A stretch of DNA of 64,000 bases from an uncultured Spirochaetota bacterium. GTDB lineage: Bacteria; Spirochaetota; Brevinematia; Brevinematales; JAOACQ01. This document shows positions 44,156 to 64,000 of the stretch, in pieces (position 1 is the first letter of the stretch; each line of letters opens with the position of its first letter). The position numbers and the translations under genes were made by a program. Where the stretch lies: positions 1,184,001-1,248,000 of the forward strand of contig CAWIGG010000002.1 in NCBI GenBank assembly GCA_963835575.1, given 5' to 3'. Below the pieces are notes generated by a model. It was not told where the DNA came from. It saw only the letters and a list, made by a program, of their open reading frames with translations, and searched no databases.

Positions 44156-45796
44156 ATGTCCCGTGATGCGAATGAGATCATAGGTAAATTTATCAGGCGC
44201 GCTTTCTGGATGACAGACCCGCAGTCCGCCGAATTCAGGCTGTTTTTTCTGGAAATGATCACGGAACTCAGAAACCTGTCCGGCAGGGATTTTAACGCGG
44301 ATATAACACTGGATGATCTGAAACGGACCGTATCGAATATTACCGACAAATACCCTGTCATAAAAAAGATTTCCCTCAACACCGTCTTTAAAACACTCAA
44401 CGCCATGGATTCGTTTGCCAAAGCCGGAGATCTTTTTTCCATCGCTTCGGCTGTTTCGACCTCTTTTCTATCAATCGGAATGCTCTTTATAGGCCCTATG
44501 CCGTATCTTTTATTAAAAGTATTCGCCCCTAACCGTTTAAAATGCGGTGTGATCATGGGAGTGGGCGGCTTGATCGGACTCGAGCTGTATGATACAAAGC
44601 CCACGCCGGTTATACGGAAACGGAATAAATTCTCACCGGCCACAATCATATCGGGCATTTTTTTTACGGTTCTCCTCCTGTTGTCCATCTTTTTAATCCA
44701 GGTACCATTTTTTTATCGTCTTCTAACTTTTCTCTGTTCCGGTATTCTTTTCTTATTCTTTATCTCGAGCCTCAGCCTCGATATTTTCAATCTGAATAGC
44801 AGAAAGAAAACAAAGGATCCCGCTGATCATGAAATTTTTCAGTTTAATATCAATACCGATAGAACGCTTTCTTCCCATTTCAAACTGGATAATGAAGAAG
44901 CCCGCTTTCTTTTCAGTCTTCAATATACCCTGGCCGAATCCAACATCGAGATGACCGTGGATCCGAAAATCAAAGGGAATAAAAGGATCTGGCTTGATAA
45001 ATGGAAAACCAGCATAGAAGCCGAAATCAGCCGCAAACTTGTCACCAGCCGGGCAATATTGGAAGAGGCTATTTTCGGGCCCATGCAGCGCCTATCAAAA
45101 TTAAAAAGAAACCTGATCTATCTTGAGTGCGCTCTTTTTAAGCCGTTTTTCCCCATTGTGGAATTAAAAAATATAGTCATTCCTGAAAAGGAAAGGACAA
45201 TTTCCCAGAATAATCTGACGGAACTTTCCCGGTCAATGAACATTACAATCCCGCCGAAGATTATTCAAAGTACATATCAATCTTCAATTCAGACGATCAG
45301 TGTGGTCAATCTGATAAAAAAAATCACACAGAGCCTGATCACGCCGTCTTTCGGAGGCTTTGCTCCTTTTTCCGTGATCCAGGATTATACCGGACTGGTC
45401 AAGACATCAACGGCAGTGAGCATCGGAGGCATCGGTAAAATACCGAAAAAAAAGGACCTGATTACTCAGGAAAATTCCTATATCATAGGCGGAGGGATTA
45501 TTCTTGAAAAAGAAATGTTCCCGCTTCTCAGCCAGATAGCGGAATACAGCTCCAATGCCGTACTTTCACAGCTGGCCCGGCTGGCTGCTTCATTTAAATT
45601 ATTTTCCGGCGAACTGCCGGATTATATAAACCAGCTGGAATCGATGCTAACGCTTGAAACCCAGCTGAGAGATACGCTGGTAAAAGTATATAATAATAAA
45701 GGAGCGGACCGCGAAGAACTCCGGCAGTCAATTCATTTCCTGGAAATGGGTATAAAATTAAGCAGGGACACGGCCGAGAAAGCAAAGAGGAGATGA
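44156..45796 (+). CDS. Hypothetical membrane protein
   Basis: 546-aa ORF with AGAGGA RBS, upstream TTGCCT-17-TATTAT and several hydrophobic segments. Confidence 0.7.
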   Translation: MSRDANEIIGKFIRRAFWMTDPQSAEFRLFFLEMITELRNLSGRDFNADITLDDLKRTVSNITDKYPVIKKISLNTVFKTLNAMDSFAKAGDLFSIASAVSTSFLSIGMLFIGPMPYLLLKVFAPNRLKCGVIMGVGGLIGLELYDTKPTPVIRKRNKFSPATIISGIFFTVLLLLSIFLIQVPFFYRLLTFLCSGILFLFFISSLSLDIFNLNSRKKTKDPADHEIFQFNINTDRTLSSHFKLDNEEARFLFSLQYTLAESNIEMTVDPKIKGNKRIWLDKWKTSIEAEISRKLVTSRAILEEAIFGPMQRLSKLKRNLIYLECALFKPFFPIVELKNIVIPEKERTISQNNLTELSRSMNITIPPKIIQSTYQSSIQTISVVNLIKKITQSLITPSFGGFAPFSVIQDYTGLVKTSTAVSIGGIGKIPKKKDLITQENSYIIGGGIILEKEMFPLLSQIAEYSSNAVLSQLARLAASFKLFSGELPDYINQLESMLTLETQLRDTLVKVYNNKGADREELRQSIHFLEMGIKLSRDTAEKAKRR

Positions 45797-46046: not shown

Positions 46047-48524
46047 TTATTCCTGGTTGAGGAGGGCGTTTAAAAGGGAAAAGATATAGGAATGATACCC
46101 GAGATAATTCAACTGATAATCCTTGAGCAGTTCTACCAGGCCGGATTTATTATTAACCCCTGTCTTGGAGTAAATAAATCCGATATGTCCTTTGACAGTA
46201 CTTTCAGAAATAAACAATTTTTTTGCGACTTCACGGGTTTTATATCCCTGTAAAAGCAGTAAAAGGATCTCTTTTTCCCTTGGGCTCAAACGGTATTTCT
46301 TGAAGAATTCATCCTGCGGCATGGTTACAGATGACAGGATCGGTTTTACATCAATGGCATTCCACCGGAGAGTATCAGTTTTATCCGGTTTTCTGACAGC
46401 AGAAATATTTACCAGCAAGGTACTGATATTCTCAGCAGATTTATATGATTGTTTTCCTGATTTTGGTATAATTTTTAACTCGGCATATTGAACTTCCTTT
46501 CCAGCCAGGGCTTTTCCGGCCAGCACTTTCATATATTTCTGTTCTTCCGGCCGGAGAAAATCCAGTAAAGATATTTCCCGGATTAAATCCGAGTTACTGA
46601 TATTAAGGCTTTTTTCACCCATCCGGTTGATAAATTTTATAACAAAATTCAGGTCTGTCTCTATCAGTATAGTCGGGAGAAGTATAGCCATTTCACGGAA
46701 TCGTTCTTCTTTTTTTTCTATTTCAATTTTTGCCGTTCTAAGATTTTCCAGTGCCTTTTTCCATTTATCAAATAAATTGATCACATGAAGTATGTTTGAC
46801 ACTTCTTCACGGATCGTGTCATAAGCCAGGGGATTAATTTCTGAGATTTCGAAACGGATAATCCCAAAACGGTTATTTTCATAAACAATCGGTAATAATA
46901 AAACTACAGAAGGTTTTTCTACCGGATAGAGAATATCAGAAAAAATATCTCCTGTTTTTTTTTCCTGATGAATTTCTGAAGCCATGTTCCTCTGGTTCTT
47001 ACGATAGTTCATTAATATAAGGGTTTGCTCAGGTATATTCTCATGAATCCCCGGTATATTTGGAAATAGTTCTATAGTACAGCCGGGAATGCCCATCTGG
47101 GGAAGTTCACGATTGAGAATATTTGCCAGTTTGTCATAATCCGGTGAAAGACTCGTATCCCGGGTAATAATTCTGAGATGATAGAGTATTGCCTCCATAC
47201 CTTCAGCTCTGGCTACTTCGCACCTTTGAATCCATTTGGTCAGAAGAAAAGAGGCGTTTAAAAAAATACTTTCAATATTATTCTGTTCCAATATGGGCAT
47301 CTCAATAATTTGACTCAGAATTTCATCTCTGATAATTGTCAGTATTTTCTGCCAGCTGACAATATTGATAATCCGGGAAGAATGCTGCCCTAGAATTTCA
47401 TTAAAAACCATTAAAAACATAGGATTGGATTTCCTGTTTTTTAAATCAAAATACAGTGAATCTAAAAGAACCGTTATGCTATGGCGGAGATTAGAGATCT
47501 CCTTATTTTCCAGGATCATCTCTTCAATTCTATCGGAAACCGCTGTCTTTACCAGATTAAATTTTTCATCAAGGCTATCCGGCCAAATATCCGGTGATTC
47601 ATCATAACCAGAAACAGTTTTTAACGATTTTTCCGAAGCCGGTATATTCCTCCTGTAAACCGGAAAACATCCGCAGGATTCACGAATAATCAGCCTTGTC
47701 GGCAGGAACAATTCTTGAGGAACTTCCTGCCCCTGAGCAGCCTGGAACAGAATTTCCAATGCTTTCCGGCCTTGTTCAAAAATCGGCTGATAGACGGTCG
47801 TGAGCGGCGGATTCATCAATTCTGCATCCGCCACATCATCAAATCCGACCAGGCCGCAGAAAGCAGGAATATCCAGCCCATGAGTACGCAAAACCCTCAG
47901 AAAAGAAATTGCCATATCATCATTGGAGGATACAACGGCATCGAGTGCTATCTTCTTCTTCAGAATGTTTTCCGCGATATATCCCCCATATTCATAACTG
48001 AAATTTCCGGAAAAAATATACTTTTTCTGAAAAGGAATACGATATTTTTTCAGGGCATCGATATATCCGCGAAGCCGTGCGCGTGCTTCCATATTACTCA
48101 GAGAACCGGTAATAAAGCCGATCCTGCTGTAACTATGGGTCTCTATAAGATGTTCCACAGCCTCCCGCATTCCATTCCGGTTATCTATAAATACACCGGG
48201 TATTCCGGGAATCCGGACACCAATACTGACTTTCGGTCCCGGAAAAAGATCACAGTATTCCCGGAACCGGTCATATCCCATGAAATTTCCCAGTGAACTG
48301 GATGCAAAAATCAGTCCCTCTATTTCCGGTGAGTGTGCCAGATCATAAATAAAATTGTGATTATTATCTTCAGGTATTGGCGAATCAAGATTTCTTCCTG
48401 AAATCATTGCAATCCGTACTGATCTTTCCCTGGCTGCGGAGATAACACCTCTCCATAGAGGTAAATGATACCTACCTTCAATCTGGTTGATTAAAAGTCC
48501 AAATATTTTACTGCTGGTTTTCAT
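46047..48524 (-). CDS. Hybrid regulator: LacI-type sugar-binding domain + PAS + LuxR HTH (likely start ATG 48524)
   Basis: IDNRNGM, R..GY, SNDDMA, GFDD and PPLTTVYQP. EERFREMAILLP (PAS entry). LSPREKEIL...LFISESTVKGHI..IY.K (LuxR). Confidence 0.88.
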   Translation of the reverse strand: MKTSSKIFGLLINQIEGRYHLPLWRGVISAARERSVRIAMISGRNLDSPIPEDNNHNFIYDLAHSPEIEGLIFASSSLGNFMGYDRFREYCDLFPGPKVSIGVRIPGIPGVFIDNRNGMREAVEHLIETHSYSRIGFITGSLSNMEARARLRGYIDALKKYRIPFQKKYIFSGNFSYEYGGYIAENILKKKIALDAVVSSNDDMAISFLRVLRTHGLDIPAFCGLVGFDDVADAELMNPPLTTVYQPIFEQGRKALEILFQAAQGQEVPQELFLPTRLIIRESCGCFPVYRRNIPASEKSLKTVSGYDESPDIWPDSLDEKFNLVKTAVSDRIEEMILENKEISNLRHSITVLLDSLYFDLKNRKSNPMFLMVFNEILGQHSSRIINIVSWQKILTIIRDEILSQIIEMPILEQNNIESIFLNASFLLTKWIQRCEVARAEGMEAILYHLRIITRDTSLSPDYDKLANILNRELPQMGIPGCTIELFPNIPGIHENIPEQTLILMNYRKNQRNMASEIHQEKKTGDIFSDILYPVEKPSVVLLLPIVYENNRFGIIRFEISEINPLAYDTIREEVSNILHVINLFDKWKKALENLRTAKIEIEKKEERFREMAILLPTILIETDLNFVIKFINRMGEKSLNISNSDLIREISLLDFLRPEEQKYMKVLAGKALAGKEVQYAELKIIPKSGKQSYKSAENISTLLVNISAVRKPDKTDTLRWNAIDVKPILSSVTMPQDEFFKKYRLSPREKEILLLLLQGYKTREVAKKLFISESTVKGHIGFIYSKTGVNNKSGLVELLKDYQLNYLGYHSYIFSLLNALLNQE

Positions 48525-48561
48525 GCATTCAGCCCCGTTTAAAAAACGAACATCTAAAGCT

Positions 48562-48590
48562 ATTATAGGAACACCCTCCTTATTTGTCAA
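48562..48590 (-). promoter_or_regulatory. Consensus sigma-70 promoter of the hybrid regulator
   Basis: TTGACA-17 nt-TATAAT, a perfect consensus immediately after the operon terminator. Confidence 0.82.
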
Positions 48591-48591
48591 T

Positions 48592-48624
48592 AAAAAAAAA
48601 GCCCCGCGCTAGCGCGGGGCTTTT
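48592..48624 (-). terminator. Intrinsic terminator of the lipoprotein operon
   Basis: AAAAGCCCCGCGCTAGCGCGGGGC followed by T9 on the minus strand. Confidence 0.88.
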
Positions 48625-48643: not shown

Positions 48644-49438
48644 TTACCATAGATTTGAAACAGCAAGATTGTCCAGATAGAATATTGTATCCTGATTGGT
48701 GGAGGAGCTGACAAACTGGATTCTAACCTTGCTAAAGTTCGTCCATGAGGCAGTGTTGGTGAGAGAACTGCTGGCATAGCCGATAATGCTGTTTGTGTTA
48801 GAGATGAAAGAAGAAATGTGGCACCATGTATCGGCGACAACGGAAGAAGTATAATAGACTGAATAAATCGGGCTATAGGAGGGAGTATAAAACTCCCATT
48901 GGATAGCTGTCATGTTAGCGCGGCAGGCGGCGGGAACATAAATGTCAAAATTTATGGTGAAATTCTGTCCGCTCATGTCGATCGTCCCTGACAAATTCCA
49001 TTGTATTTCCACACCGGTGGAACCGCTTTGATTCGTTGAATATGCATGCACCTGAACACATGCGTTGGCGCCGACATTTGTTAAGATGGCATTATCGGTA
49101 ATGGCCGGACTGCCGCTGGTAAGATTTCCTTTAGACAGATAGGGCCCGCCGGCCGAAGTATCGAAGTTCTGGTTGATAGCCACTATCGATATGAAACTGC
49201 TGGCACTGCTGCTCGATATTTCCGAGGACGCTGATGATGCTGCTAACGAACTGGCTGCCGCAGAGGAAGCCGTAGAAGCGCTTGAGCTCGATGAATCCAA
49301 CGAACTGGCTGGTACAGAGGACGCTGAAGATACGCTTGAGTTCGAGGATGTGTCGGACGAGGAAGAGTTCGGGGCAGTCGAACATCCCATTAAAGTGAAT
49401 AACGCTAAAACAGATGCTGCAAATAATAATTTTTTCAT
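48644..49438 (-). CDS. Lipoprotein with long Ser-rich linker + unrecognised beta-rich domain (paralog 3)
   Basis: Lipobox LMGC, ~60-aa Ser/Ala linker, and motifs TGVEIQW, NFTINFDIYVP, ADTWCHIS and KVRIQF. Confidence 0.85.
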   Translation of the reverse strand: MKKLLFAASVLALFTLMGCSTAPNSSSSDTSSNSSVSSASSVPASSLDSSSSSASTASSAAASSLAASSASSEISSSSASSFISIVAINQNFDTSAGGPYLSKGNLTSGSPAITDNAILTNVGANACVQVHAYSTNQSGSTGVEIQWNLSGTIDMSGQNFTINFDIYVPAACRANMTAIQWEFYTPSYSPIYSVYYTSSVVADTWCHISSFISNTNSIIGYASSSLTNTASWTNFSKVRIQFVSSSTNQDTIFYLDNLAVSNLW

Positions 49439-49503
49439 AAAACCTCCTTTAATTTTATACTCTAGATTTTGTACTTAAAATTTTATACAAAATATCTGTT
49501 TTG

Positions 49504-50598
49504 CTAGGGAGTTACTGTCAGGGATCCGGCATCCATCGATATTTCGTAAAACCCATGCGGGTCCCAGTTTAACACGTTTGTTCCCTGCTTGACCGTGCCG
49601 CCGCCGTTGCTGATGCGGAGATACATACCGGCCGGAAAGTGGTCCGGAAGGGCCCAGCTCCATATCGTGTTGCTTCCGGTATCAACCGGTGTTACTGCCG
49701 ATAAAACCTTCTGCGCTCTCCAGTAGGCCCCGACCCTGGCGACTGTGTCAATCCACATCCAGCCCAGAGCTTTGGCATGCTCCATGCTTCCAGTGACATT
49801 TGCGGTATCGACAGGGGCATACCAATTGGCTCCAGGCAGGATTGTATGGTAGAGGAAAACCAGCCATGTTCCGTTTATATAGTCTGAATCAAGATGACCA
49901 TTCAGGTCTGATGCGGTTTCTCCGCCGGATGCCATATAGACCGGCAGTCTGAACGGGTCTGTGCCGTCGTTCGGCGCAATTGTTCCATTGGCGACCCCGC
50001 GGTTGAGAAAGTACCTATTACTTGCGTATGTTATCCATTGTGTATCACCGTATGGAGAAGCCATGGTCACGACATTGCTCCCGCCTAACTGATCGATAAT
50101 ATATTGCATGTTCGAATCGATTTCTTCAAGCTGGGTGGAAAACGGCGTTCCGCCTGTGCCGGAGTCTGAAAGATCGGCATGAGAATGATGAAATGTGTGA
50201 TTGCCGATCTCATGCCCGTCTTTGACTGCCTGAGACCAGAGGAATTCAAAATTAGCCGATGTATTGCTCCATCCGGCACAGATATAAAATGTCAGGTGAA
50301 CGCCTTCCTCCTGAAGCAAGCTGTAATTCTGGACCTGTGAAGGCTGACCGTCATCGAAAGAGTACGATACTGCGGCCTTAAATCCTGCCCAGTTCAATAT
50401 GATCAGGCTGCCGGGAGCGCCGGCCGGCTTGGGCACATTGGTTGCCGGAGGATAGGGCAGCCCGGAAATTGTACTGTTCCCTTCCGACCCGAATGAAGGG
50501 ACGGATGAAGAGTTGCTGCTGGTGGAAGATCCGGAATCGGAAGAGGGCTGGACTGAACAGGCCGTCAGCATTATAAAGAAAAAAGTGAATACTTTCAT
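49504..50598 (-). CDS. Lipoprotein polysaccharide deacetylase (CE4/NodB fold)
   Basis: Lipobox LTAC, Ser linker, and motifs SFDDG, HEIGNHTFHH, PYG and LYH. Confidence 0.85.
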   Translation of the reverse strand: MKVFTFFFIMLTACSVQPSSDSGSSTSSNSSSVPSFGSEGNSTISGLPYPPATNVPKPAGAPGSLIILNWAGFKAAVSYSFDDGQPSQVQNYSLLQEEGVHLTFYICAGWSNTSANFEFLWSQAVKDGHEIGNHTFHHSHADLSDSGTGGTPFSTQLEEIDSNMQYIIDQLGGSNVVTMASPYGDTQWITYASNRYFLNRGVANGTIAPNDGTDPFRLPVYMASGGETASDLNGHLDSDYINGTWLVFLYHTILPGANWYAPVDTANVTGSMEHAKALGWMWIDTVARVGAYWRAQKVLSAVTPVDTGSNTIWSWALPDHFPAGMYLRISNGGGTVKQGTNVLNWDPHGFYEISMDAGSLTVTP

Positions 50599-50618
50599 AA
50601 ATAAACCTCTGTAATCCG

Positions 50619-50654
50619 GGACAATTCTAAAAACTTAGTTTTTTAGAACCGCCC
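50619..50654. repeat. Degenerate mini-MITE/REP-like palindrome
   Basis: GGACAATTCTAAAAACTTAGTTTTTTAGAACCGCCC. No TSD visible. Confidence 0.65.
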
Positions 50655-50682
50655 AACATTTTATGCGGCTGTTTGGATGCAA

Positions 50683-52623
50683 TTATTTACCAAACTGCCA
50701 GTAATCAATTACAAAAGAATTGACAACATTTACAGTGAACCGCAAATAAAGGTCATGCACACCGCTTATATTACTGACTGCCGTAGTGATATTGGTCCAA
50801 CCGGAAGTATTGGTAAAAGTCAGGGAACCTATTTTTGAACCGGAACCCTGCGGACTGTCAATCCATATATCAATTCTCCCGCCGGCCGATCCTGCTGATA
50901 CTTTAGCGGTAAAGGTCACTGCTCCGGTGTCAAAATCCACGCTTTTATATTTAATACAGCTTCCATTGATAATATTGCTGACAATGATCTGACCGGCGGA
51001 CAGAGCCAGCGTCTTAATATATCCGTACTGCCGGTTCATAGTTTCAGCCTGAACAACAGAGTAAGGGTCCATATTTTTCAATTTCTCCACCCCGTTGGTC
51101 GTCTGAACTACTCTGATAATCAATCCATCCGTATCGTAGTAAAGCCGGTCCATGCAGACACTTCTATGATACGCCGTGGATGCGCCCTCCAGGGTTGCCA
51201 GTGTCCGGTCATGGTAGAAGATGTACCAATTCGTACCGATCTGACCGATGGATGCATGATTGTTGTTGCCGTAATTGACAGGAGGATTATCCAGAATCGT
51301 ACCTTTATAGACAAAATTGGACATCGGATTGTCGCTTATCATATAATCAATTGTGGCGTTAGGAGCGCCGGAAAAGTCGGTGGAATAGGAGAAGTAATAT
51401 TTTCCATTGTATTTATGCATATAGGAAGCCTCGAAAAAGCGCGGGGCATCAATTGTCAAAGCCGTTCCGGCTGTATCCAGCATATCAGCGCTGAGTTTGA
51501 TTACCCGTGCATTTCCCGGGCCGCCGCCGCCGAAATACATATAGCCCTGCCCGTCATCATCCACAAAAACCGCCGGATCAAAGCAATAAGTAAGATTGGA
51601 AGCTCCGGGAGTATTTCTGGTAATGATAGCATGGCCGACAGGGTCAGTCCAGGGCCCTTTAGGGGATGAGCTGGTAACGACTCCTATGTTATCTCCGCCG
51701 TTGCCGAAATACATATAATAAATATTGCTTCTGCAGACGATGGAAGGCGCATAGGTGTGAAAAGCCCAGGGTACGGTTTCTACTGTTGATACCGGCTCCC
51801 CGAGATCAGTCCAGTTGACCAGGTCATCCGATGAAAAGACGGAAACATCATTTATAACGTACGAGCTCTGACTGTCCAGATCGTGGGAAGTATAAAGATA
51901 GACCCGGTTATTGTAAAATCCGAAAACAGGATCCGCAGTGAATTTCTGGGAGATAATTGGATTCCCGAGATCCATAAACCATTGCGGTATATTTCCGCTC
52001 AGGTCCGGTATACTGCTGGAAGAGGAAGAACTGCCGGTCTGGCTTCCTGACGTCCCGCGAAAATAGGCGGCTTTCAAATCGAATTCCAATACCCCGGTGC
52101 CGTCAAAATGAATGCCCATAAGGCGCGGTATTTCCAAGGCATAGCCTACAATCTGGTTGACCGGAATGACCACCGTATGCCACTGGCCGTCGCTAACAAG
52201 GCCGTAAGGCGTCAGATCATTCCACCCGGGATAATCCGGTTCCAGCTGGATATTCAACTGGGCTGTAGCGGCAGCGAGCCGGATGATGAGGACAAGACTT
52301 CCGTTGGTAAAACGGCTGAAATCGGTTCCGTTTACCGGACCGGTACTATCCGGGTTTAGCTTGACACCGCTGCTTCCGGAAGTCTTATCTGCCCTAATAT
52401 GGACATAATTACTTCCATCAGTATCAACTCTGTTGGAAACGGTTGCCGTTCCCCAGGTATCGATATGGGAATGCGGCATCAATGGAAGACCGTCGCCGTA
52501 AAACGCAAGGATTTCAGCGCTTTGGGATGGTGCAGATGATTTAGAAGCCGAAGAACCGGAGTTTCCTGCCTGGATTGAACATGCCGACAGCAATACAAAA
52601 GCCAGGATACAAAACACTTTCAA
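50683..52623 (-). CDS. Lipoprotein GH43 glycoside hydrolase (arabinofuranosidase/xylosidase-like) with N-terminal beta-domain and C-terminal CBM6 (likely TTG start 52623)
   Basis: AGAGGAG RBS 7 nt before TTG, giving MKVFCILAFVLLSAC. GH43 motifs TADP, FDPAVFVDDDG, FFEAS and NNH. CBM6-like VQAET...VDF...GVHDLYLRF...DYWQF. Confidence 0.88.
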   Translation of the reverse strand: MKVFCILAFVLLSACSIQAGNSGSSASKSSAPSQSAEILAFYGDGLPLMPHSHIDTWGTATVSNRVDTDGSNYVHIRADKTSGSSGVKLNPDSTGPVNGTDFSRFTNGSLVLIIRLAAATAQLNIQLEPDYPGWNDLTPYGLVSDGQWHTVVIPVNQIVGYALEIPRLMGIHFDGTGVLEFDLKAAYFRGTSGSQTGSSSSSSSIPDLSGNIPQWFMDLGNPIISQKFTADPVFGFYNNRVYLYTSHDLDSQSSYVINDVSVFSSDDLVNWTDLGEPVSTVETVPWAFHTYAPSIVCRSNIYYMYFGNGGDNIGVVTSSSPKGPWTDPVGHAIITRNTPGASNLTYCFDPAVFVDDDGQGYMYFGGGGPGNARVIKLSADMLDTAGTALTIDAPRFFEASYMHKYNGKYYFSYSTDFSGAPNATIDYMISDNPMSNFVYKGTILDNPPVNYGNNNHASIGQIGTNWYIFYHDRTLATLEGASTAYHRSVCMDRLYYDTDGLIIRVVQTTNGVEKLKNMDPYSVVQAETMNRQYGYIKTLALSAGQIIVSNIINGSCIKYKSVDFDTGAVTFTAKVSAGSAGGRIDIWIDSPQGSGSKIGSLTFTNTSGWTNITTAVSNISGVHDLYLRFTVNVVNSFVIDYWQFGK

Positions 52624-52706
52624 AAACAGTCTCCTCTTTATTAATATTTTTGCCATTGCAAAAAACCGGACTGCGCCCGCAGGACTCAGTCCGGTCCCTT
52701 TATTTT

Positions 52707-54337
52707 TCAATAAAATGATATATTTGTAGCGTATGCATTGATGTTGAAACTTGCGTTGGCATCGGTCAGTGATGTAATGGTGTTTCCATTAATCTTAAAG
52801 TTGTAAAAACTAACCCCATCGATAGTATTGGTTTTACCATAAGCCGGGCTGTTGGTATCTGTTATCCAGGAATGATCTGTACCGACAAGACGGCATTCCC
52901 TGTTTATATTTGCTGAAATATTGGAAAATATCGTATTGGATATGGAACCAATCCCGAAGGCCGTTCTCCAGTTGATACTCTGGACATCCATATCCAGATC
53001 TATAAGCCGTCCGGTGACATACTCGATCCTGATATTATTAAAAAGGGTGCCTGAAATAACAGCCGTATCATCTGCGTCAATGACCAGCGCCCGGTCGACA
53101 AGAATGACATCCACATCGTCATAGGTGACGTTTGATATGGTATCCCCGATGGTCTTGGTTCCGATCTTGCATGCGCCGTAGCCGAAGCAGACGATCTTCC
53201 GGTGAGTAATGCCGTTCACACTCATATAAGGACCGGTTGTCGGATCGACAGTAGTACCATAGGATTGCCCGTCGGGAATATCATCGCTTTTCACGGCCAT
53301 GCAGTCGTCGCCGTCATAGAGGAAGGCGTTGTAAAGGCTGCAGTTGATGCAGTTGTCAAAGTCAACGCCGTCGGTTTGTTCCATGTTGATGACAGCCGGT
53401 TGTTGATAACTTTATAATTGGTGATGGCGATACCGGTGCTCCGGTAAATCAGGGTGGTCCAGAAGCAGGAATCCCGGGAAATGATGCCTTCGACTATGCA
53501 GTTGGTGCTCCCCTCAATTTTTACAAGGAACATCTTTCTGCCGGAAGATTTCAGAACCTTGCCGTTGCCGTCGATGGTTCCTCTTCCCATCAGCCGGGCA
53601 TTGATGACGCCGTTCATACTGATAAAGCCCTGGCTGCACCCCTCGATTATGACATATCCTGCAGGATTAGCCAGCAGTTCGCCCGAAGTCGTGGCGCATT
53701 CCAGAACAGCCCCATCGGCCAGATACATGGTCATGTTGTTCTTTAGATTGAGGGTTTTGGTGCGGTATGTCCCCGGCGGAAAGTAGAGAATATTCCGTGC
53801 CGCGCCTGAAGCCTGATCAATCGCCCCCTGGATGACCGCAGTCACCAAAGTTCCTCCGGTATTGTCCATCCCCGCATAATCCATGATGTTTGTGACATTG
53901 GCATCACCCGGCTTCGGAGGGCTAACCTCGGCGGGATCAATCAGGATAAAAAGCCGTTCCACTCCAAAGGTCTGTGACTGGAGGACCAGATAACCTGGTT
54001 CGGTTGCCGTGAAAGTTATCGTATTTCCTGAGACAGACAGGCTGATGTTTTTGCTGAGCGGACTCAGGGTATAGCCGGAAGCGGATCCGCTGTTTACGGT
54101 CACTGCCACTGAACAATTGGAGCCGGGCCAGTTTAAACGGACATAATTTACCGGGACATCGTATTTGGAAACCCTTTCAACCGCTGCCGGCGATCCGTTT
54201 ATTGCGACCGAATAAATGGAAGCCGCGGATGTCGAACTGCTTGAGGTTCCATTATTGGAGGATGCCGGATTGACGCTGCAGCCGGTAAAGATCAATAAAA
54301 ACAAAAATATTACATTGATAAACCATTGCTTTTTCAT
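52707..54337 (-). pseudogene. Lipoprotein right-handed beta-helix glycoside hydrolase (GH28-like), 1-nt frameshift near 53378
   Basis: Lipobox FTGC. Motifs IQGAID, LYFPPGTY and GRGTIDGNG, then W-N-[Q]-TDGVD, GDDC and CKIG in the shifted frame. May be a sequencing error. Confidence 0.8.
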
Positions 54338-54377
54338 AATAACTCCTCCTGATTTCCCGGGATTGTAAAATAGCGCA

Positions 54378-54411
54378 ATTGCCGGCGAGTTCTGAATAAA
54401 TCGCCGGCAAT
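54378..54411. other. Intergenic hairpin inside the lipoprotein operon
   Basis: ATTGCCGGCGA-loop-TCGCCGGCAAT. A second hairpin ACCGGACTG...CAGTCCGGT lies at about 52665-52696. Confidence 0.6.
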
Positions 54412-54424
54412 CAATTTAATCTTT

Positions 54425-55087
54425 TTAATTAGTATTCAAAACAACGAGATTGGCAATATCAAACATAATATCCTGACCGTCAGCAGGGCTGAGAAACTGG
54501 ATCCTGACCTTGTCAAAGATCCAATCTCCAGGATTTTTTGCGAAACCGCTATAGGTAATATACTGACCTACTTTAATGGGCACGCTTATATGGCACCATG
54601 TATCAGCAGCTATGACTGATTTATCAAAGTAGCATGAATAAATCGGCGTATAGTCGGCCGTGATGGTATTATAAAACGCGAATTGAACAGCGGTCATCAT
54701 TGATCTGCTTGCGGCAGGAACATAAACATCAAAATTAATGGTGAATTTCTGGTCCTTCATATCAGTCGGTTGTTGTAAATCCCACTGTACTTCAACACCG
54801 GTGGCGCCGTATAAATTCTGCGAATAGGCATGGACCTGAACGCAGCTTTTACCGCCGTTTGTTACAATAATACCGTTGTCGGAAATATTTGGACCTGCGC
54901 CGGAAAGCCTCCCTTTAGACATAAAAAAACTGCCGGCTGAGGCAGCGAAACTCTCATCGACGGCCACTACAGGTTTGAAACTATCGCTAACGATACTGCT
55001 GTTACTGCGGACTGTATTGGAACAAGCCGCCAGGATAGACAAAAGCATTGAAGCAAAAATGCTCAGGAAAATCTTTTTCCTTATCAT
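54425..55087 (-). CDS. Lipoprotein with unrecognised beta-rich domain (paralog 2; likely start ATG 55087)
   Basis: GGAGG RBS, lipobox LAAC, and motifs TGVEVQW, FTINFDVYVP, ADTWCHIS and WIFDKVRIQF. Confidence 0.85.
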   Translation of the reverse strand: MIRKKIFLSIFASMLLSILAACSNTVRSNSSIVSDSFKPVVAVDESFAASAGSFFMSKGRLSGAGPNISDNGIIVTNGGKSCVQVHAYSQNLYGATGVEVQWDLQQPTDMKDQKFTINFDVYVPAASRSMMTAVQFAFYNTITADYTPIYSCYFDKSVIAADTWCHISVPIKVGQYITYSGFAKNPGDWIFDKVRIQFLSPADGQDIMFDIANLVVLNTN

Positions 55088-55341
55088 ATAAATCCTCCAG
55101 CCCGAGGGCTTTTCAAATGTGATCATCATTTCTGTATATTTGAAACAGCAAGATCGGCCAGATAGAACAGGATTTCATTACCGGCAGCGGTATCGAGAGT
55201 TCTTAACTGGATTCTGACCTTGTCAAATATCCAGTCTCCGGGATTGCTGGCAAAACCGCTATAGCTGACATTGCTGCCCCCGGTAGTTGAGACATAACCC
55301 TTAATGTGGCTCCATGTATTGGAGACAACGGAGCTTTCATA

Positions 55342-57042
55342 CAGACTGTGTGAAAAAAGAGAATACATTTATAAGATCAGCCATCTAAAGGTTCCTGCTT
55401 ACTTTAAAGAAGAGCCTGAATAAAAAATTACTGATAATCATTGAAATTCAGACTATATTGCGGCTAATAACTTATCAAAACCAGCAATATTCAGAACTCT
55501 TTTAAAATTATAGATAAATGCCGTGAAATTAAACTCGCTTTTTACTTTATCAATCCCCTTCAGCAAGAAATTATTATAACCAAAATTTCCTTTTATTGTT
55601 CCAAATGGATGTTCTGCCAACTCTTTTCTGATTGCAACAATCTTTTGCCCCAATTCACTTCGGACCTTCTCATCGAATTTATCCATATCTTCCTTTCGCA
55701 CCGATAACTTTACCGTCCTGCCTTCTTTGCTTTTTGTGCATAAATGCTTCTTCTCACAATTCTCGTTCCTGCACTTGAATTCCGCTACAGTAATCCCCGT
55801 GTTTTTATCCTGATATACACTTTGATTATTTAATCGTAATCCTTGCGGACAAATCAACTGGTTCTTCTCTTTATCAATCTTGAAATCTTCTGCCAGATAT
55901 CCTTTTGCCGGGATACTTTCTTTCTGCTGCTCTTTGTACCTGGACTTTTTTTCTTTTTCATCGCGCGGGCTTGGAATATAGATTTCATGACCCCCGTCTG
56001 TAAGCGGTAATATCTCACTTTCGCAATAATATCCGGCATCCAGGACATGTATGGTTTTTAATCCCGGTTCGGCTTCAAGTTCTTTCTTTATTTCTTCAAC
56101 TTTATTAACCATATTTCCCGCTTGATGAACATCATTACTTTCATTGGTTACATCCACCGCGACAATCAATTTATTCTTTTCGTCCACTGCTATCTGCGCG
56201 TTGTACAAAACATCCGTTTTCCCTTTATCTTTCCCAATTCTGCCGTCGGGATCATTCCCGTAAACGATTTCAAGTTCCGGATCGGCCTCAAACATTTTTT
56301 TTATCGCTTCTACTTTTTCTTTTCTTGTCTTGAGGCTGTCCAGCTTTTTTTCAATGTTGCTGGATAAAAACTCAAACTCGTTTTCTTCCGATTTATCATT
56401 TTTATCCAATTCCAAAAGATATTTGTCTATTTTTTCATTAATCTTTTTCTCAACTCCTTCAATGCTTTCCCGCCTATAAATATTACCCAGACTGTTTTGC
56501 CCACTTATTTTCGTTCCATCTGTCGCTGTTAATTTAAATGTCAGCAGTTCTAATTTGCGGCATACTTTCAAAAACTCTTTGAAAATGTTTTTTATGCCCT
56601 TAATATTATCCCTTCTGAAATCCGCTATGGTCTTAAAATCAGGCGCTAAGCGGCAGGTCAGCCATATCAGTTCCGTATTCCTTTTACATTCGTTTTCTAA
56701 TTTCCTCGTGGTCCTGACTTTGTTCAAATATCCGTAAATATATATTTTCAACAATACATCCGCTGTGTAGGATGGACGCCCTTTTTTCGCCTCTTTAATT
56801 TTGAATCCCAACCTCCTGATGTTTAGTCTGCTCACATATGCGTCTATAATTCTTACAGGGTTCTTCTCTTCTATCAAACCATCAATAGTTTCCGCGTAAA
56901 GTACTATCTGGTCTCTTGGCTCTCCTGTTATATGGTTCATCTTACACACCTCAAATTTGATTACATATTATACCTTATTAAAATAAATTTGAGGATTTTT
57001 CTCCGCCTTTATTGTCTTACACCGCCTTTTTCACACAGTCTG
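55342..57042 (-). mobile_element. IS1182 family element, complete
   Basis: Perfect 16-bp TIR CAGACTGTGTGAAAAA. 3-bp duplication ATA at 55339-55341 and 57043-57045. Confidence 0.93.
55453..56940 (-). CDS. IS1182 family transposase (likely start ATG 56940)
   Basis: GRPSY, PDFKTIADFR, DGTK, YNAQ, DAGY and EHPFGTIK. Confidence 0.93.
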   Translation of the reverse strand: MNHITGEPRDQIVLYAETIDGLIEEKNPVRIIDAYVSRLNIRRLGFKIKEAKKGRPSYTADVLLKIYIYGYLNKVRTTRKLENECKRNTELIWLTCRLAPDFKTIADFRRDNIKGIKNIFKEFLKVCRKLELLTFKLTATDGTKISGQNSLGNIYRRESIEGVEKKINEKIDKYLLELDKNDKSEENEFEFLSSNIEKKLDSLKTRKEKVEAIKKMFEADPELEIVYGNDPDGRIGKDKGKTDVLYNAQIAVDEKNKLIVAVDVTNESNDVHQAGNMVNKVEEIKKELEAEPGLKTIHVLDAGYYCESEILPLTDGGHEIYIPSPRDEKEKKSRYKEQQKESIPAKGYLAEDFKIDKEKNQLICPQGLRLNNQSVYQDKNTGITVAEFKCRNENCEKKHLCTKSKEGRTVKLSVRKEDMDKFDEKVRSELGQKIVAIRKELAEHPFGTIKGNFGYNNFLLKGIDKVKSEFNFTAFIYNFKRVLNIAGFDKLLAAI

Positions 57043-57692
57043 ATAGAGAACCGAGTAAACCGGGACATAACTGTGAAGAATAGTATCATAAAATGCCCAC
57101 TGGATACCGTTAACTCCGGTAAAGCCTCCTCCATTAGTATAGGTAACATCGGGGACATAAACATCGAAATCAATGGTAAAATTTTCTCCTCTCATATCGG
57201 TCTGCTGGAATAAATTCCACTGCACCTCCACACCTGTGGCTCCGTTGGCGTTCACTGCATTTGCATGCACCTCAAGGCATGCATGGCCTGCGTTACTGAC
57301 TATCGTGTTATCTCCGGCAAGTGCGCCCCCCTTTGAAAGGTAAAAGCTGCCGGTCGAAACATCGAAATTATTGGTGTAGGCCACAACCGCTGTGAAACCG
57401 GCACTGGAACTGGAACCACCGCCGCCGCCGGAAGATGCCGGTGAGGTTGAACATGCCGTAAAAACCGATATTACTATAATTCCCAATGCAAAAAGAACAC
57501 TTTTCATATTTAAAACCTCCACTCATTATTTTTTTATACTTTTCATCCGCTTAATAACAAAATCAGAACAAAATATTATAATGGCAGGATCAATCATTTG
57601 ATAGGTGCAAAAAGTCGGGTTTAAAAAAATATTCCGAGGAATTTGCTTTATGTTTTTCAATTTTCAAAATTTATTTTAATTTAGTGAACAAC

Positions 57693-57873: not shown

Positions 57874-58152
57874 GTGCGGAAAGAATTCAATCCGGCATTG
57901 AGTGATTCCGCCGTTAATGAATGCTTTGGTTTTTCGGACTGTGAAGCAGAGATTACAGCCAGACTCATTAAGGGAATGAGCTATAACAGCATCAGGCAGA
58001 GCCTCTTTATCAGCCTGGACACAGTCAAGACTTATGTCAATAGAATCTACCGTAAAACCGGCATCAGTAAACGGCAGGAACCGCAAAGGGTATTGCAGAA
58101 TGACGTAAGAGAAAGGAAATATTTTTTCCGGGGCCGGAAAAACTGTTCATGA
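57874..58152 (+). pseudogene. Isolated LuxR-type HTH fragment
   Basis: FSDCEAEI..LIKGMSYNSI..SLFISLDTVKTYVNRIYRK. No sensor domain and no clear RBS; abuts the IS91 remnant. Confidence 0.6.
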
Positions 58153-62728: not shown

Positions 62729-64000
62729 GGTCCGACTTCAAGACATAGGTTACACTTTAGCTTCAGGACATCGGTAACCCTTTTTGAGTACAAAATGCCC
62801 TTGAATTACTATTTCAGTATAGACCTAAATATAAAAGTATTCAAGTCCATACTACCTATCAGATTATTTTCAAACCACACATCCATAAAAGCTTTGCTTT
62901 TACTTTTTAAACCAATATGATAACCATCCAACGCATTTGTAATAAATACACGCCGACCTTTATAATAAATGTAACCTCTGTTATTAACCTTTCTGCTGAT
63001 GTATCCCTTGGGATATACAACCCAATCGGCTATCCCATCATAACTCCTAACCGATTTTATATAGACCATTGCTGGTGTTTTCATTCCAAGGCTTTCATGC
63101 GGTCTTTCCTCGTTGAACTCTTTTCTCCATTCGTTGAATACTGCCTGGTGCAGCTTCAGGCTACCGCTGATTTTGTTTTCCAGTTCCTTTTTCATATCCA
63201 GGTGCATCCTTTCATGTGCTCCGTTCTGATAGGGAGAGCCGGGATCAATTCTGTCCAGCTTTATGCCCAGAGACAACCACCATGCTGATAGTCTGGTTAA
63301 ACCAAGTAAACCCTGTGTACTGGCAAACGGCGGCCCATTATCGGATTTTATCATACTCGGTAATCCATATTGCTTGAAGAGTCTGTCAAATTCAAATTTG
63401 ACGGAACTAATATCACCTTTTTGCAGTATGGCTATGGATAAAATATATTTGGAATAATCATCACGTACTGTAAGTGGTTCGCATCTTTCCTGCTCGGAGG
63501 TATACCACCAGCCTTTGAAATCCACTGTCCAGATATCATTTGGTTTTTTCGGTGCTACCCTGTTCTGTATTCTTTCCGGATGTATGTGTCGTCTTCTTTT
63601 CCTTAATTCTACAAATCCGGCCTTTTTCAATATCCTTTCGACAGTGCTTAATGAAGGAATTTTATTATCCGGGTGGTTCCTGACATAAACCGACCTGATT
63701 TTCTTAGGTCCCCAATTCTGCTTCGTTTGCTTGATACGGATGATCTCGCAGATTATTTCTTCAGAAAGTTGATTAGGGCTTGAAAGCGGTTTCCTAGATT
63801 TTTCTTGAAGACCGGACAACCCTTCTTCATAAAACCTTTCTTTCCACTTATAACCGGTTTTTGTGCTGATCCCATATTCAGTACAAAGCTCGGTAAAGTT
63901 CACACCTTTTTGGAATGACTTTTCAATAAAAGCTAATTTCAGCTTCATGATATTAACCTCCTTCCAGGGCATTGTCAGCCTCCTTAATGAGATCTGACCT
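62729..64000 (-). mobile_element. IS481 family element, other end outside the window
   Basis: Subterminal repeats CTTCAAGACATAGGTTACAC (62736-62755) and CTTCAGGACATCGGTAACCC (62761-62780). End coordinate is approximate. Confidence 0.82.
62809..63972 (-). CDS. IS481 family transposase
   Basis: MPWKE, TGYKW, WGPKKI, WTVDFKG, SDNG and QNGAHERMH. Confidence 0.94.
   Translation of the reverse strand: MPWKEVNIMKLKLAFIEKSFQKGVNFTELCTEYGISTKTGYKWKERFYEEGLSGLQEKSRKPLSSPNQLSEEIICEIIRIKQTKQNWGPKKIRSVYVRNHPDNKIPSLSTVERILKKAGFVELRKRRRHIHPERIQNRVAPKKPNDIWTVDFKGWWYTSEQERCEPLTVRDDYSKYILSIAILQKGDISSVKFEFDRLFKQYGLPSMIKSDNGPPFASTQGLLGLTRLSAWWLSLGIKLDRIDPGSPYQNGAHERMHLDMKKELENKISGSLKLHQAVFNEWRKEFNEERPHESLGMKTPAMVYIKSVRSYDGIADWVVYPKGYISRKVNNRGYIYYKGRRVFITNALDGYHIGLKSKSKAFMDVWFENNLIGSMDLNTFIFRSILK

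Follow-up and report, generated by a model that had tools for sequence, protein, structure and literature searches.

In the part of its published description on which we draw (PMC4850273), SGBP-B of Bacteroides ovatus (PF18329) is a lipid-anchored protein whose C-terminal beta-sandwich binds xyloglucan via an aromatic platform on the concave face and whose gene adjoins that of a cognate hydrolase. Here, we describe three paralogous genes (A, B and C) on the minus strand of a 64,000-nucleotide stretch of DNA from an uncultured Spirochaetota bacterium (the window; G000:C2:1184001-1248000, where G000 is the 4.39-Mb host genome), which encode proteins sharing a domain of about 180 residues. They resemble SGBP-B in their N-terminal lipidation signal, recognizable as a lipobox cysteine in all three sequences (residue 19 in A, 22 in B and 19 in C), in their C-terminal domain, predicted to be a beta-sandwich, and in the hydrolase genes beside them. 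They differ from it by a Ser-rich linker (about 63 residues in A, 15 in B and 19 in C) in place of an Ig-like stalk, by a PF18329 score of at most 13.5-14.2 bits (in B; A and C gave no match) against a cut-off of 26.4, and by a Foldseek TM score of 0.40 to 7k44. Moreover, a profile scan found neither SusC nor SusD among the open reading frames (ORFs) of the locus, and the two TonB-type barrels of G000 lie elsewhere.

The domain also resembles the carbohydrate-binding modules (CBMs) of families CBM22, CBM15, CBM11, CBM27 and CBM30, with which it shares the predicted fold over its whole length (Z 12-14, root-mean-square deviation (rmsd) 2.6-4, about 145-155 residues aligned) and, for some of its members, the fusion to glycoside hydrolases (GHs). 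In contrast to these families, it shows 10-17% identity and no profile match to any of them, includes circular permutants, and occurs mostly as stand-alone lipoproteins rather than as enzyme modules. We read the model and sequences as best fitting a new CBM-like family of envelope lipoproteins without catalytic activity of their own, and we assign a probability of roughly 0.65 to these proteins being lipid-anchored, binding glycans and thereby concentrating substrate for the envelope enzymes encoded alongside them. The lipobox would anchor the protein in the envelope, presumably with its domain displayed at the surface, while the beta-sandwich would bind a plant polysaccharide without cleaving it and keep it near the neighbouring membrane-anchored GH28-like enzyme. 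As for SGBP-B or free CBMs, polysaccharide captured at the envelope would be passed on to separate enzymes in trans or, in the fusion proteins, to the attached enzyme in cis. Since a lipid-anchored glycan binder paired with a hydrolase is already a known kind of system, the gain is a new family and no new principle; the family suggests that glycans are captured in the manner of SGBPs beyond Bacteroidota as well.

A candidate family with a predicted CBM-type fold

The three proteins are 45-50% identical in pairwise comparisons over about 185-220 residues, with E values (1e-28 to 1e-56) that exclude chance similarity. The original prediction, made from the DNA letters alone, of three paralogs of a lipoprotein domain of ~180 residues is borne out, and the shared motifs that it listed are seen in the alignments. 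Paralog A (48644..49438) is an intact lipoprotein of 264 residues with its domain at 48647-49195, and paralog B (54425..55087) an intact one of 220 residues with its domain at 54428-54979. Paralog C is cut by an insertion sequence (IS) of the IS1182 family: its 5' part (57043..57507) encodes the lipobox, the linker and the first ~118 residues of the domain, and its 3' part (55126..55338) the last ~70 residues in the same frame. The prediction was silent on this interruption, as well as on the frameshift in the nearby GH28-like gene. No further copy of the domain was found in the whole host genome.

None of the three proteins reached the cut-off of a Pfam or NCBIfam family. No match to a named Pfam CBM (CBM4/9/22, 6, 11, 15, 27, 30 and 35) was listed for the three paralogs at E<=0.1 or, at E<=1, for 10 members of A2. 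Thirteen of 75 relatives match PF18329 at E<=0.01 and a single one exceeds its cut-off (26.8 bits), which points to a weak kinship with SGBP-B; judged by these profiles, the family is not a member of PF18329 nor of any Pfam-modelled CBM family. A match of the domain to PBP-Tp47_c (E 0.02-0.04) stayed below cut-off and was rejected. The initial view of the domain as CBM-like and outside established families is upheld by the fold model, the fold searches, the lack of a Pfam or NCBIfam match and the GH fusions, and is tempered by the weak PF18329 matches among relatives.

As homolog searches seeded with words brought up just 3, 0 and 8 matches, a full HMMER profile scan of 1.84 billion representatives was needed. 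At E<=0.001, it returned 78 proteins, of which three are the window's own or identical to them; clustered at 50% identity, the family comprises about 75 clusters besides those of the window. A rough lipobox pattern occurs in 54 of the 75 Met-starting members, and many of the misses look truncated. The domain is present in 5 of 401 sampled genomes of the host's phylum and in 3 of 301 of the class of G402, and the two relatives with a named source come from Polyangiaceae and from a Deltaproteobacteria metagenome-assembled genome (MAG). A single-protein scan of genome contigs confirmed none of 82 candidates, sequence searches of solved structures with three domain profiles gave nothing credible, and a literature search that reached few subscription journals returned no description of the domain family, an unnamed family being hard to find by words.

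Structure prediction and fold search, proposed as a check along with the original prediction, point to a CBM-type beta-sandwich. The AlphaFold model of the paralog B domain, built on a 54-row alignment, is all-beta (pLDDT 97, pTM 0.92) and displays the galactose-binding-like beta-sandwich of the CBM superfamily. Its best structural match is CBM22 (2w5f; Z 13.9, rmsd 3.0, 144 residues aligned), followed by CBM15 (1gny; Z 13.7, rmsd 2.6, 144 aligned), then 2c4x and CBM11, the first two being tied with several other CBMs. Foldseek gave 178 matches at E<=0.001 with CBM27, CBM11, CBM30 and CBM15 on top, and the named Atlas neighbours of the domain are CBM27, SGBP_B_XBD and CBM30 (0.94-0.95). A relation to FlaA was rejected (Foldseek TM 0.38); the host genome holds four FlaA genes versus none in 14 control genomes, which by itself makes a spirochaete host very likely.

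Conserved polar and aromatic residues, numbered after the domain of B, fall on alternating strand positions. E63 (48/52), Q65 (43/52), Q99 (45/54), Y114 (51/54) and R159 (50/53) are the most constant; Y110, Y143 and Q161 are less strictly conserved. Judged by the alternation along the strands and by the general topology of CBMs, these eight residues would line a putative cleft on the concave sheet, and W128, W153 and F83-D84 are probably core residues. As a candidate new CBM family, the domain offers expressible members of 180 residues and a short list of positions to mutate.

Partner enzymes and the probable ligand

The domain gene is adjacent to or fused with one subclade of GH28-like enzymes in 6 of 11 loci (window, L012, L014, L023, L024 and L025), and lies beside an SGNH or CE4 esterase in two others. 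Of 12 genomes of the host's family, three contain the domain, and these three are also the ones that contain the enzyme. Beyond uvrB, G066 carries the series domain, domain, GH28-like, domain, and G231 is alike until the contig ends. Three fusions, all with the domain N-terminal to the hydrolases, make it a module within a carbohydrate-active enzyme, which the window copies are not: P0014 (domain, GH28-like and SGNH), P0027 (domain and GH28-like) and P0030 (domain, GH43 of the GH43_16 type and CBM6). The enzyme of P0030, named 'arabinoxylan arabinofuranohydrolase' at JGI, is 45.5% identical to the GH43 of the window, and its domain fills the slot held there by a CBM30-like domain. The link between domain and GH28-like enzyme is strong but not obligatory, since the enzyme's sister clade lacks the domain (absent from 10 of 10 neighbourhoods read) and G508 has two domain genes with no GH28-like match.

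The GH28-like lipoproteins, found in the window (52707-54337) and at L012, L023, L024, L025 and L041-L055, form a family with an extra N-terminal domain and two subclades, PVNYV with the domain as partner and MQVHYAH without. Identity within this family is 38-58% across phyla and 87% within one genus. The ten sister-clade neighbourhoods (57 of 77 ORFs scanned) are mixed, some of them containing GH11, GH2, GH31, GH88 or GH43-CBM6, and do not fix a substrate. Like the GH28 exo-polygalacturonases 2uve and 3jur, the partner shows a beta-helix profile match and the catalytic NTD and DD aspartates, N(E/N)TDG and GDD being kept across 23 rows. HG and RIK are further GH28 motifs; HG is present in only one of the six rows that cover it. 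The partner also departs from these enzymes by its N-terminal domain, its lipoprotein nature, its xylan-type neighbours and its NCBIfam scores, which are all far below the GH28 cut-offs. PF00295 passes in the fusions (54-56 bits) and not in the two pieces of the window. These enzymes point to an uncharacterised GH28-like clade, with 41-51% identity between members from two phyla, in a xylan-type context.

Several observations weigh against a glycan-binding role as proposed here. Binding itself is what we infer from the model: a shared fold by itself proves no function, all the more at just 10-17% identity to CBMs, and the cleft was placed by strand alternation and general CBM topology. In addition, the closest characterised relatives of the partner are pectin-acting GH28s, two of the eleven loci (L062 and L064) have no nearby carbohydrate enzyme and a third (L061) shows an ambiguous, weak esterase match beside the domain gene. 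G066 and G231 belong to one genus and are not independent, G508 has the domain without the enzyme, and of the 301 genomes of the sampled class, 20 have the enzyme family and just 3 the domain. A domain that mainly docks onto or stabilizes the GH28-like enzyme and binds no glycan would also be expected to sit next to, or in one protein with, a single enzyme subclade in two phyla, with a sister clade free of the domain. This is improbable because a GH43-CBM6 enzyme of unrelated type carries the domain as well (P0030), 5 of 11 loci have the domain gene apart from the GH28-like one, and an acidic low-complexity linker separates domain and enzyme in both GH28-like fusions. A small enzyme, lyase or esterase, using the cluster of conserved Glu, Gln, Tyr and Arg would account for the near-invariance of E63, Q65, Q99, Y114 and R159, permutants included, and for most members being stand-alone proteins. 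We give it a similarly low probability: the top structural matches are non-catalytic CBMs, one conserved acid stands alone on the presumed cleft face, and the domain takes the accessory position in enzyme fusions. Even less probable is the earlier suggestion that the paralogs form a ladder in which the same binding site is held at graded distances from the membrane. The window linkers would allow it, but a long one occurs in copy A only, the five kin copies of G066 and G231 having linkers of about 15-29 residues; moreover, copy C is inactivated here, and the window and G066 copies do not pair one-to-one in a tree whose support is weak.

The ligand is a separate question, and a binder of pectin (homogalacturonan or rhamnogalacturonan) serving a polygalacturonase-like enzyme would be a variant of the glycan-binding explanation in which the ligand is the sole difference. 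The retained GH28 acids, the match of the partner to exo-polygalacturonases (E 1.8e-21) and a conserved Arg that could pair with a uronate speak for it; the xylan-type neighbours and the sub-cut-off GH28 scores speak against. Furthermore, UxaC was found in just 1 of 5 carrier genomes tested and GH10 in all five, a test that is limited by the small number of genomes, some of them incomplete, and by missing other uronate routes. Since L024, with a GH43, a TIM barrel resembling xylose isomerase, an FGGY kinase and a GH8, is in addition a xylan/xylose locus, a xylan-related ligand, perhaps decorated xylan, appears more likely than pectin/homogalacturonan, and the pectin variant is possible but rather unlikely. 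No tblastn match to the xylose-isomerase-like protein of L024 was found in G000 at E<1e-8; G000 has four GH10 matches and a xylulokinase-like gene, and may use another isomerase type or route. According to the portion of the source considered, xylan terminates in a Xyl-Rha-GalA-Xyl tetrasaccharide (PMC6397879), and it is tempting to speculate that this xylan end is the target of the GH28-like enzyme in a xylan locus. As general context, Myxococcota MAGs are described as enriched in xylanases and pectin lyases in the part consulted of a preprint (10.1101/2021.07.06.451402). The broadest picture, which we regard as clearly unlikely as a whole, would be a new CBM family of spirochaetes and myxobacteria-like bacteria, permuted more than once into a strand order with no good solved match, and serving an uncharacterised GH28-like clade on xylan, for instance on its GalA-containing reducing-end tetrasaccharide, and not on pectin.

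Circular permutation within the family

A natural circular permutation of the CBM sandwich linking two CBM families is named in the title of PDB entry 2xhh, the two families presumably being CBM36 and CBM60. In the present case, permuted and unpermuted forms coexist inside one family; one cut point is clear, and two further ones are indicated more weakly. When 79 proteins were scored with profiles cut at every fourth position, nine improved by 45-74 bits for a cut near 88-92, P0039 by 19 bits at 164 and P0024 by 13 bits near 28, and the remaining 68 by at most 6.2 bits. These scores identify the nine as circular permutants with swapped domain halves. Reciprocally, a permutant profile matches the window copies as two swapped halves and finds full-length single-ORF matches in G067 and G143; HHalign gave 99.4% for one half. 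The model of the permutant P0050 (pLDDT 79) shows a matching strand series in rotated order. Its best Z against 48,161 chains is 5.6, versus 13.9 for the unpermuted form, and it has no Foldseek match at E<=0.001, which for a weaker model is no proof of a new fold. Most of the putative cleft residues persist in the permutants (R159 and Q65 in 9/9, E63 and Y114 in 8/9), with Q161 lost.

An approximately unbiased test rejects a single clade for the nine permutants (p 0.0007). This suggests, but does not establish, a repeated origin or reversal of the permutation: the tree is a quick one with long branches, and 32 of its 81 rows were picked in view of an earlier tree, the thorough search for which was not completed. 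Tandem paralogs as found at this locus are a plausible substrate for permutation, and the permuted and unpermuted forms with their conserved putative cleft constitute a natural test set for such an origin. One permutant clade (P0073, P0074, P0076, P0077 and L064) seemingly has a signal peptide and no lipobox, and may on that ground be soluble rather than anchored.

The locus and its neighbouring genes

On the minus strand, the genes read in the order C, B, GH28-like, GH43-CBM6, CE4 and A, and the run ends 3' of paralog A in a terminator-like 12-bp hairpin (48597..48624). The GH28-like beta-helix lipoprotein (52707..54337) is spread over two reading frames, 53291-54337 and 52707-53384, with a single base missing from its WNETDG motif near 53378. 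The GH43 lipoprotein (50683..52710) combines a CBM30/Exop_C-like N-terminal domain with GH43 and CBM6. Its closest solved relatives are 5a8c and 3c7e, which we take to be GH43_16 arabinoxylan arabinofuranosidases. The N-terminal domain (residues 62-222; 52045-52527) has no Pfam match, and its Atlas neighbours are Exop_C, CBM30 and SGBP_B_XBD at 0.95. The CE4 polysaccharide deacetylase, likewise a lipoprotein, is encoded at 49504..50598.

In this assembly, the locus looks damaged, with C and the GH28-like gene broken and A and B apparently intact; reads from four public runs fall mainly over the IS, and none spans the frameshift or the IS junctions, while no RNA run was listed among the public data. 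The IS1182 element (55342..57042, minus strand; transposase 55453-56949) leaves the two halves of C in frame. Its assignment is based on a transposase above cut-off (NF033551, 318.8 bits versus 270), 16-nt perfect terminal inverted repeats and a 3-bp target duplication. Seven near-identical copies are present in G000, with a direct 3-bp duplication at five and none at two. Their sites look semi-palindromic, e.g. GTGCACAGA / TCTGCGCAC.

Downstream of paralog A, a minus-strand ORF (46047..48590) encodes a regulator with a LacI-type sugar-binding domain and a LuxR helix-turn-helix (HTH). A perfect sigma-70 consensus at 48590-48562 suggests that its true start lies further inside the ORF. About 30 related stretches across G000 represent a large expansion, a few of them seemingly split between frames. 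For the 546-residue membrane protein encoded at 44156-45796 (plus strand), a Pfam scan gave no credible match. A short LuxR/GerE HTH ORF (57874-58152, plus strand) is divergent from the locus and is possibly a regulator remnant, and a second transposase-like ORF (62809-63972, minus strand) can be read near the window end.

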